A DNA stretch of 64,000 nt from Candidatus Latescibacterota bacterium. GTDB lineage: Bacteria > Latescibacterota > UBA2968 > GCA-2709665. This document shows positions 60,559 to 62,572 of the stretch, in pieces. Numbering within the stretch: position 1 is the first letter of the stretch; each line of letters starts with the position of its first letter. The notes beneath the pieces are model-generated. The model searched no databases, was not told the DNA's origin, and saw nothing but the letters and a program-made list of their open reading frames with translations. A program made the translations under genes and the position numbers. The DNA lies in contig OZ242180.1 of the NCBI GenBank assembly GCA_965205485.1, positions 4,544,001-4,608,000 on the forward strand, read 5' to 3'.

Positions 60559-61539
60559 ATGATTCGATTCGTTGCATGCGTCGTGTTCCTGCTGGTCCCG
60601 GGATTCTTTCCGCCGGGTCCGGCGGAAGCCCAGAGTGTCGGTGACGCGGTACCGACGTTCTCGCTTACCGGGCTGGACGGAAAAACCTACGCCTCGGCGT
60701 CTTACAAGGGAAGTGTTCTGGCTCTCTATTACCTGGGCCATAACTGACCCACCTGCCGGGCGGCGGGTCCGTCCATAGAACAGCAGATCTGGAAGGCGTT
60801 CCAGGATGACGGCCTGGCGGTCCTGGGACTTGACATCTACAATGGCACTCAGGCTCAACTCAGGGGTTTTCAGACAGCGTCCACGATCACGTTTCCCCTG
60901 CTGCTGCAGGCAGGCAGTATCAGGGGATCTCACGGAACCCACACGTTGCTGGTCGCGGACCGGGAAGGGATCGTCCGTCACATCGGGCGCGGCGCTTCGG
61001 GTCTCAGCGCCGCGGCGGCGAACATCCGGGAACTGCTGACGCTCCCGCCGCCGACAATCAGACTTCCCAGTACGTCGCTCGACTTCGGCGAGGACGTTCC
61101 TGCCGGTGAAGCCAGGACCGTTACCCTCGTCGTAAGGAACACCGGTGGCAAAGACCTCAGCATTACGAATCTTGAGTCCGACCTCGAGGGCGTCACATTC
61201 AGCCTGACGGCACTCACGGTCGCGCCTGGCGAACGTGCAACCGTCGATATCACCTTCACGCCCGCGGAGGGAGGACCTTTCTCCGGCACGATTACCATTT
61301 CCAGCGATGACCCTGAAAACGGAAGTGTCACGGTCTCGATTTCCGGAACGGCGGTCGTCGTCCCCGTCAATCCCAAGGCCGACTTCGACAATGACGGCGA
61401 AATCGGATTCAGTGACTTCGTCGCCTTCGCCCAGGCCTTCAGTACCGACGACCCGACCTTCGACCTGAACGGAAACGGCCTGGTCGACTTCCCGGACTTT
61501 CTGGAATTCGCAAGGAACTTCGGCAAACGGGTGCCATGA
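60559..61539 (+). CDS. Probable exported selenoprotein: UxxC redoxin + Ig-like domain + dockerin/EF-hand-like tail (326 aa, Sec63)
   Basis: ORF-track pieces 60559-60747 and 60946-61539 share a frame and are separated only by TGA 60745-60747. Read-through gives YLGHN-U-PTC-RAAGPSIEQQIWKAF..VLGLD..TFPLL, a continuous redoxin fold. AGGAGG RBS; signal peptide ending AEA-Q. Confidence 0.88.
60748..60787 (+). promoter_or_regulatory. Bacterial SECIS-like hairpin, paralogue 1
   Basis: GGCG-[GGTC]-CGTC apical stem-loop, with the loop starting 19 nt after the TGA; possible lower CTGC/GCAG stem. Confidence 0.6.
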
Positions 61540-61594
61540 GTTGGCGCTGGGCGTGTACACCCGCAGGATTGTCCCTTCCCGAAGGAGGTATCAC

Positions 61595-62572
61595 ATGTAC
61601 CGACTCCTGGTTGCCGCGGTGATCATGGGCCTCTTCGCGCCTGCGTCCGCATGGGCTCAGAAGGTCGGAGATGCAGTACCGTCCTTCTCGCTCACGGGGC
61701 TGGATGACAAGACCTACATGCCCGCGAATTATGCGGGTAACGTCTTCGTGCTCTACTACCTGGGCCATAACTGAGACCTGTGCAGACAGACGGGTCCGTC
61801 TATAGAAAGACAAATCTGGAAGGCGTTCCAGGATGACGGCCTGACGGTGCTGGGACTCGACGTCTATAATGGCAGCAAATCGCAATTGCAAGCCTTTCAA
61901 AGAGTCACCGGGGTCACGTTCCCGCTTCTCCTGCGAGCCGGCCGCGCATTTCCGAGAACGCTCGGCGTTGACCATACGCTTGTCGTGGACCGCAAGGGCA
62001 CGATCCGTCACATCGGGATACGCAAACCGGCGTCAATCACCGCAACGGCCGCGCGTATCCGGGAACTGCTGAGCGTCCCGCCGCCGGCGATCAAACTTTC
62101 GGGTAGGTCACTCAACTTTGGCGAGGACGTGCCAGCCGGACTATCCAGAACGCTCACCCTGGTCGTTCACAATACCGGCGGTGTATCGCTTACGATCAGC
62201 GACATTCAATCCGATCTCGAGGAAATCTACATCAACACCACTGAGGTATCGGTCGCGGCAGGAGACAGCGCGAGGGTGGCGATCACATTCACGCCGGCCG
62301 AAACCGGTCCCTTCTCCGGCACGATTACGATTACCAGCGACGATCCGGAAAACAGAAGCATCACGGTCGCTGTTTCCGGAGCGGTCATCGTTGTCCCCGT
62401 CAATCCCCGGGCCGACTTCGACCATGACGGCAAAATCGGCTTCAGCGACTTCGTCGCCTTCGCACAGGCTTTCAACACCCGCAATGGCACCTTCGACCTG
62501 GATGGAAACGGCCTGGTTGAATTCCCGGACTTCCTGGAATTCGCCAGAAACTTCGGCAAGAGCGTGCCATGA
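61595..62572 (+). CDS. Probable exported selenoprotein, paralogue 2 (325 aa, Sec60)
   Basis: ATG 61595 after AAGGAGG. In-frame TGA 61772-61774 gives YLGHN-U-DLC-RQTGPSIERQIWKAF and continues in frame into ORF 61847-62572. Same domain layout; signal peptide ending AWA-Q. Confidence 0.88.
61775..61805 (+). promoter_or_regulatory. Bacterial SECIS-like hairpin, paralogue 2
   Basis: AGACG-[GGTC]-CGTCT perfect 5-bp stem, with the loop starting 19 nt after the TGA. Confidence 0.62.

Follow-up and report, generated by a model that had tools for sequence, protein, structure and literature searches.

Candidate SECIS elements in two neighboring genes for predicted redoxin selenoproteins of a Latescibacterota genome

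The redoxin genes and their hairpins

We analyzed a stretch of 64,000 nucleotides (hereafter, the window) from a Candidatus Latescibacterota bacterium (assembly GCA_965205485.1, contig OZ242180.1, positions 4,544,001 to 4,608,000 of the forward strand). It carries two paralogous redoxin genes, each interrupted by an in-frame TGA that is followed by short stretches able to pair. The features are listed below, with offsets counted from the first base after the TGA.

60559..61539, + strand: gene of paralogue 1, a 326-aa predicted selenoprotein with the TGA read as Sec; active-site motif HN-U-PTC
60745..60747, + strand: in-frame TGA of copy 1, Sec63 of paralogue 1 and first position of UxxC
60751..60768, + strand: UGA-proximal rival hairpin of copy 1, +4..+10 with +15..+21, -11.7 kcal/mol; the loop G residues are buried in naked RNA
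60758..60774, + strand: SECIS candidate of copy 1 in the shifted register, six pairs (+11..+16 with +22..+27), loop CGGGU at +17, -9.3 kcal/mol
60762..60773, + strand: SECIS candidate of copy 1 in the GGUC register, four pairs around GGUC (60766-60769), -3.4 kcal/mol
61595..62572, + strand: gene of paralogue 2, a 325-aa predicted selenoprotein with the architecture of paralogue 1; active-site motif HN-U-DLC
61772..61774, + strand: in-frame TGA of copy 2, Sec60 of paralogue 2
61775..61796, + strand: UGA-proximal rival hairpin of copy 2, +1..+7 with +16..+22, -10.6 kcal/mol
61788..61801, + strand: SECIS candidate of copy 2, five Watson-Crick pairs around GGUC (61793-61796), -5.3 kcal/mol

Both paralogues contain an AhpC/TSA redoxin domain with a UxxC motif (PF00578 and PF08534, above cut-off), a choice-of-anchor D Ig-like domain (NF012200, above cut-off) and an EF-hand/dockerin-like tail (NF041540, below cut-off). 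Their N-termini resemble signal peptides by eye, and export is thus predicted only. In the thioredoxin-fold domain, the predicted Sec aligns with the first Cys of the CxxC motif in ResA/TlpA-type structures. The best matches in protein collections cover 50-74% of the query and lack a redoxin Pfam label, and close relatives are present there as C-terminal parts only, under the names choice-of-anchor D or DUF1573 proteins. Such partial, redoxin-less matches are to be expected where gene callers stop at the TGA. The two genes that gene callers split are each predicted to encode a single exported selenoprotein, a reading that corrects the annotation throughout a class of uncultured bacteria. Among family members, open frames reach ~1,700 codons, a range that suggests stalks of very different length. 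Among the matches listed, a second paralogue is found in only four (G000, which is the genome considered here, G002, G004 and G010) of the 15 genomes of the genus.

Upstream of the redoxin genes, at 58421-60524 (+), the window encodes a TlpA/ResA-like CxxC protein and a DUF6029 protein with a CxxxxC-type tail. These two genes and both redoxin genes lie on one strand with close spacing, and together look like an envelope redox operon. On the 3' side of paralogue 2, at 62598-62628, an A-run, a GC stem and a T-run resemble, by eye, a two-way intrinsic terminator; the element is absent from the listing of the feature scan.

A sequence-only reading of this DNA had described SECIS-like hairpins with a GGUC loop in the register of E. 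coli fdhF, and the letters are indeed as described. GGTC begins six codons past the TGA in both copies (60766-60769 and 61793-61796, i.e. +19 to +22), between GGCG (60762-65) and CGTC (60770-73) in copy 1 and between AGACG (61788-92) and CGTCT (61797-801) in copy 2. The fdhF sequence given in that reading also agrees with the E. coli K-12 record, where GGUC stands at +19 to +22 after Sec codon 140. The same reading took the +16:+25 pair, which is G-U in copy 1 and A-U in copy 2 while codons 4-6 read RAA and RQT, respectively, as a sign of kept pairing. The difference is there but is weak evidence alone, as it is one-sided and non-synonymous (Ala to Thr).

Such an arrangement is rare by chance. 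Across all six frames of the whole genome, GGTC at +19 within a stem of at least four pairs follows 16 of 140,084 TGA triplets. Synonymous resampling of the copies' own amino acids gave P = 0.0037 and 0.006 for GGTC with a four-pair stem, values that are not independent, as the copies share ancestry. Three of the four loop letters are dictated by Gly-Pro codons, and the match to fdhF is partly a coincidence of these codons and the general spacing rule considered below. An Rfam scan of positions 58000-64000, with E up to 10, yielded four weak matches, none of them to a SECIS family.

When folding was considered, the GGUC stems were not the minimum-energy folds of either copy. With the UGA included, the best fold of both copies is the UGA-proximal hairpin (-11.7 and -10.6 kcal/mol), in which the loop is buried. 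Masking the first six to ten bases after the UGA of copy 1 results in the shifted six-pair hairpin, which is ~6 kcal/mol below the GGUC fold and which is impossible in copy 2. In copy 2, the five-pair GGUC hairpin is the best fold within 36 nt, while in 45 nt a longer downstream fold of -7.9 kcal/mol buries G20 and U21. Over computed ensembles at eight occlusion lengths, the probability of the closing pair +18:+23 is at most 0.18 in copy 1 and at most 0.07 in copy 2, the latter being low because this longer fold competes. For copy 1, masking at least six bases after the UGA opens G19-U21 (P of at least 0.9), and both of its registers leave G19 and G20 unpaired; its fold has a z-score of -0.9 relative to shuffles, and the hairpin can also be drawn with a bulged C at the position of E. 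coli U17, at -3.2 kcal/mol. As isolated hairpins, copy 1 reaches -9.3 kcal/mol in the shifted and -3.4 kcal/mol in the GGUC register and copy 2 reaches -5.3 kcal/mol, to be compared with the -7.5 kcal/mol limit of the bacterial consensus. As the upper hairpin of E. coli fdhF itself gives -5.7 kcal/mol in the same calculation, the sequence window used matters for this limit.

Conservation among Sec and Cys homologues

The homologue search found matches in 60 of 61 genomes, with 150 rows among the matches listed and 87 rows beyond these. Our set, a subset of the matches, combined 30 loci from the search with 60 fetched regions. The HMM alignment held 101 rows at the Sec column (and one gapped row), 96 of which were distinct, namely 75 with TGA, 20 with Cys and one with Thr. 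The Thr row and three TGA rows were removed, the latter being two distant redoxins of other subfamilies and a row that contains an N. This left 72 Sec rows; the Cys rows were split by hand into 6 close and 14 distant ones; one close Cys row and one Sec row carry an upstream stop. Rows were placed by a quick tree for which no root was inferred, in which the six close Cys rows are spread over five distinct positions between Sec rows. As homologue rows are related, the counts below overstate independence; the hairpin pattern nonetheless returns in distinct clades, at protein identities of 35-50%.

One in-frame TGA is present in most of the close homologues throughout the class. A single TGA at the same catalytic position is found in 75 distinct rows from four families and in 20 further rows, with flanking frames intact in nearly all. 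A stem of at least four pairs around a loop starting at +19 is present in 53 of the 72 distinct Sec rows, as compared to 3.0 expected from synonymous resampling, in 2 of 6 close Cys rows (0.2 expected) and in 1 of 14 distant Cys rows (0.1 expected). GGTC at +19 shows the same tendency (49/72 Sec, 1/6 close Cys and 0/14 distant Cys rows). GGT is the Gly codon at position 7 in 52 of 59 Sec rows and in one of four close Cys rows, the background being 21%. The third base of four-fold codons is G in 61 of 65 cases at +15 and in 62 of 66 at +18, while the commonest third base at codons -10 to -7 accounts for 35-53%; in Cys rows, the wobble bases scatter.

Fixed registers do not describe the whole family. 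In a later set of mostly more distant homologues (20 rows, 17 distinct windows), four preset registers recovered 2 of 17 windows, with 0.6 expected, and GGTC stood at +19 in one of 20 rows; in these rows the loop lies at +16 or +17, which is a further register. We then applied a register-free test that retains the amino acids, which was written after the preset registers had failed and is thus post hoc for this later set. A G-loop hairpin of -4.5 kcal/mol or lower was present in 45 of the 50 distinct windows of the first set and in 15 of the 17 later ones (9.5 and 3.7 expected), and one of -7.5 kcal/mol or lower in 32/50 and 10/17 (3.4 and 0.9 expected). The close Cys rows gave 3/6 and 0/6 at the two limits. 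Equal conservation in Cys-encoding homologues, which would have pointed to protein constraint only, was thus not seen, as the hairpin is weaker in Cys rows, though 3 of the 6 close ones keep one and one close Cys homologue keeps the whole GGUC motif. Similar partial retention of SECIS elements is described for Cys-type hydrogenase genes in the available text of a recent study (PMC13582414). Loop openness did not separate Sec (56/72) from Cys (5/6) rows; among Sec rows, those with an open loop rise from 39 to 56 of 72 when the UGA and ten bases are masked.

Over the 50 distinct windows, paired cells and covariation score were higher for each register than in any of 500 shuffles. The GGUC register has 70.4% paired cells with 6 two-sided changes and the shifted register 71.3% with 31, while RNAalifold returned no consensus structure for these windows. 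The exact fold proposed in the sequence-only reading stands for copy 2 and is uncertain for copy 1, where the shifted hairpin is more stable and shows more two-sided changes in the family.

The register follows codon 7. Where this codon is GGT (31 windows), the +19-type fold is found in 28 windows and the shifted fold in 17 (2.4 expected for each); in the 19 windows without GGT, the shifted fold is found in 16 and the +19-type fold in 8 (1.4 expected for each). For Pro8, tetraloop rows use CCG, while one pentaloop clade uses CCC. As GGT is strongly chosen yet unable to extend the shifted stem, U21 seems to be selected as a loop base, which would favor the GGUC mode in copy 1 as well. Over the family, the loop start slides from +16 to +20, and 29 of 65 distinct windows have GGTC at +19. 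What is conserved is a predicted hairpin that exposes a G at around +18 to +20, of which GGUC at +19 is one version.

Selenocysteine machinery and other candidates in the genome

The genome encodes selA, selB and selD, each above its curated cut-off, and a tRNA-Sec (selC) scoring 73.4 bits, likewise above its cut-off. The selA, selB and tRNA-Sec genes form one cluster, and selD carries its own in-frame TGA. In the set of relatives, selB is above cut-off in 56 of 61 genomes. Predicted loops in other Sec or candidate genes of the genome start at +17 (Prx-like, AGUU), +18 (selD, GGUC; a beta-barrel-like gene, GGGC), +19 (fdhA, GGUCU), +20 (DUF5069, UGGA; UGSC family, GUU) and +23 (SelW-like); fold prediction gave no clear hairpin for the rhodanese-like gene. 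As loop starts vary from +17 to +23 within one genome, the local SelB appears to tolerate several offsets.

Including the two genes of the window, the genome contains at least 12 selenoprotein candidates. The others lie outside the window:

G000:C1:2012961, + strand: locus L103, M20D/AbgB-like amidohydrolase (TIGR01891, above cut-off), HG-U-GHN
G000:C1:4221141, + strand, and 4799692, - strand: loci L105 and L106, paralogous predicted exported proteins, GVS-U-RRP after a signal-like peptide
G000:C1:703819, - strand: locus L101, small DUF5069 protein, YVYP-U-PAD
G000:C1:382849 (+), 1258026 (-), 1284143 (+), 2888581 (+), 4124761 (-) and 2395657 (-): SelW-like, Prx-like/SelL-related, UGSC family, rhodanese-like, FdhA and SelD candidates, all of known families

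One TGA is present in 49 of 50 matches of the amidohydrolase at 75-99% identity and is absent from genome G059, where selB was also not found; Sec would here presumably replace a metal-bridging Cys. For the paralogous pair, one of which has a weak PF13557 match, one TGA is found in 33 of 33 matches, all of family f1 and with no Cys homologue seen among them. A GGGC-loop hairpin lies at ~+18, with stem changes from C-G to U-A in 12 genus loci, and the pair is a candidate for an unlisted selenoprotein family. The DUF5069 gene has a TGA in 50 of its best 53 matches (none in G022, G034 and G059) and, at 12 of 12 genus loci, a six-pair hairpin whose loop, UGGA, is at +20. The amidohydrolase, the paralogous pair and DUF5069 all lack an entry in the 119-family selenoprotein table, as far as the available part of PMC13188914 shows. 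Literature searches on selenoprotein amidohydrolases and on Latescibacterota selenoproteins, whose scope left out most subscription journals, listed no relevant title.

When the whole genome was screened by hexamers for TGA codons that are read through, most of the hits listed were gene junctions and antisense frames. One locus, L099 (G000:C1:67480, +), was rejected as a selenoprotein, as it is a broken IS256 transposase gene whose in-frame TGA is not followed by a hairpin.

Interpretation and comparison with known systems

Both hairpins are very probably ordinary bacterial SECIS elements that are read by the organism's own SelB. The proposal that they are functional SECIS elements is well supported, by inference from the machinery genes, the UGA at the position of the CxxC Cys, the conserved TGA and selection at synonymous sites. 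From the sequence, the machinery, the conservation and the synonymous selection that we observed, we infer the following course of events in the cell. A ribosome pausing with the UGA in its A site would, from established ribosome geometry, cover about the first ten bases after the UGA and would therefore remove the UGA-proximal rival stems. A short hairpin with an unpaired G at about +18 to +20 would then form at the mRNA entry site, with the GGUC tetraloop in copy 2 and either this tetraloop or the shifted pentaloop in copy 1. The loop G would bind the winged-helix tail of SelB-GTP carrying Sec-tRNA, and Sec would be inserted as the attacking residue of a UxxC site, of the thiol-disulfide oxidoreductase type, in a protein that is predicted to be exported.

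Other explanations should be weighed against this one. Broken genes, in which the TGA codons would be true stops or errors, are hardly credible: the relatives in protein collections do consist only of C-terminal parts with 50-74% coverage and no redoxin Pfam label, but such entries are the usual gene-caller product for Sec genes, and the TGA holds the same catalytic position, with frames intact on both sides in nearly all cases, in 75 plus 20 homologue rows. It is also very unlikely that the hairpins simply result from encoding Ala/Thr-Gly-Pro-Ser with the codons of a GC-rich genome, with Sec inserted through another feature or with no specific structure. G19, G20 and C22-C23 are indeed dictated by Gly and Pro codons, this Pro is common to Cys-type redoxins and a four-pair stem in the +19 registers is found in 2 of 6 close Cys rows. 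However, amino-acid-preserving resampling predicts 3.0 such stems in 72 Sec rows where 53 are seen, the register moves with synonymous choice (Pro8 CCG or CCC) and the wobble bases of Cys rows are scattered.

Somewhat less remote, although still improbable, is a function for the rival folds themselves, as an mRNA switch that would tune Sec insertion differently in each paralogue: the SelB site would be hidden in the closed state, and the arrival of the ribosome would release the open one. The hairpins that bury the loop G are the more stable ones in both copies (-11.7 and -10.6 kcal/mol) and masking opens the loop, with P of at least 0.9 for G19-U21 of copy 1 and a rise from 39 to 56 of 72 Sec rows. 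Against this, the two copies do not share a register in their rival hairpins, the loop is open in 39 of 72 Sec rows even when nothing is masked, and GC-rich coding RNA readily forms such stems, as the z-score of -0.9 for copy 1 illustrates.

The sequence-only reading had further suggested that the hairpins may be readable by E. coli SelB. The conserved determinants of E. coli SECIS elements are U17, G23 and U24, with U17 required (PMC8659212 and PMC8704476, in their available text), and a change of U17 or G23 abolishes UGA reading, as stated in the accessible part of the review (PMC8659212). The three E. coli K-12 elements all have this U, which lies at +14 and is bulged in the folds of fdhF, fdnG and fdoG; the latter two have AGUC at +19 to +22, as opposed to GGUC in fdhF. 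Position +14 is C in copy 1 and A in copy 2, and is U in only one of 65 distinct homologue windows. The equivalents of G23 and U24 (+20 and +21) keep their letters at the same offset in both copies, where they are unpaired in the isolated upper hairpin and paired in the rival folds. Stems start at +11 (copy 1, shifted), +15 (copy 1, GGUC register) and +14 (copy 2), as compared to +12 in fdhF, the E. coli criterion being 11 nt after the UGA (positions 15-31). With respect to the reader protein, the local SelB shares 142 of 340 residues with E. coli SelB in the N-terminal part, 17 of 74 over E. coli residues 487-560 and 16 of 54 over residues 561-614 (the latter boundaries being set by us); the match of its tail to the Moorella structures (E 2e-7) is better than that to E. 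coli SelB (E 3e-4).

We thus consider it unlikely that the hairpins are of the fdhF type in a strict sense and usefully read by E. coli SelB. The GGUC at the fdhF offset, the retained G23/U24 equivalents, the copy 1 fold with a bulged C in place of U17 and the several basic and aromatic residues common to the last winged-helix motifs of both SelB proteins speak for it. Reading by E. coli SelB is nonetheless doubtful, because both copies, like 64 of 65 homologue windows, lack the required bulged U17, and the local SelB tail lies nearer to Moorella. As one defining feature of the E. coli type is absent, the hairpins should not be filed as that type. Nor is the +19 register specific to fdhF, as a loop G ~20 nt after the UGA is a general bacterial rule in the available text of PMC4605307 and PMC13188914. 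Finding a GGUC loop where fdhF has it is no guarantee that E. coli can express the gene natively. A literature search on the reading of SECIS elements across species found no papers.

Returning to the preferred reading, that of ordinary elements served by the local SelB, a doubtful extension of it is that the family SECIS slides in register with the overlapping protein (loop at +16 to +20, as tetra-, penta- or triloop) and that copy 1 is bistable, its SelB site being hidden until the ribosome reaches the UGA. If true, Latescibacterota SelB would read a moving G-loop without a bulged U, and the redoxin family would be a natural library for bacterial SECIS rules and for the design of less restrictive SECIS/SelB pairs. 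The added value is modest, namely a worked case of a SECIS element and the overlapped protein co-evolving through a register shift.

Among known systems, the closest in domain content are the UxxC selenoproteins of the Prx-like thiol:disulfide oxidoreductase (PF00578) and redoxin (PF08534) families, both entries of the 119-family table (available part of PMC13188914), with which both paralogues share the domains and the UxxC motif. Unlike these, the window proteins have the redoxin domain joined to an Ig-like domain (choice-of-anchor D) and to a tail of EF-hand/dockerin-like type and start with a signal-like peptide, and the available part of the same table has no row for a fusion of redoxin, Ig-like and dockerin-like parts.

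The winged-helix/SECIS structures of Moorella SelB (PDB 1LVA, 1WSU and 2UWM) are the best match of the local SelB tail. The local fdhA SECIS has an unbulged stem and a GGUCU loop at +19, GGUCU being the Moorella type of SECIS loop. The organism of these structures, Moorella thermoacetica (PMC4605307, available text), is of a phylum distant from that of the window genome.

With the fdhF SECIS, the hairpins share the in-frame UGA followed by a short hairpin in the coding region, GGUC at +19 to +22 and a low stability of the upper hairpin (-5.7 kcal/mol, as compared to -5.3 kcal/mol for copy 2). They differ from it in lacking a bulged U at +14, in a closing pair that is G-C here and A-U in fdhF, in the preference of copy 1 for the shifted fold and in an offset that varies across the redoxin family.

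The consensus bacterial SECIS of Zhang and Gladyshev, as given in the available text of PMC13188914, has a loop of 3-9 nt, a stem of 4-16 pairs, a G in the first two loop positions, a distance of 16-37 nt from the UGA and an energy of -7.5 kcal/mol or lower. Loop, stem, G and spacing of the GGUC folds and of the shifted copy 1 fold all agree with it, while the energy limit is reached by the shifted copy 1 fold and not by the isolated GGUC hairpins. Other features of the consensus are also present: location in the coding region directly past an in-frame UGA that aligns with a catalytic Cys; SelA, SelB, tRNA-Sec and SelD in the genome; and conservation beyond protein constraint that is greater in Sec than in Cys homologues, in a small Cys sample (n=6 close). 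The hairpins thus fit the published model of bacterial SECIS elements and add no new mechanism to it.
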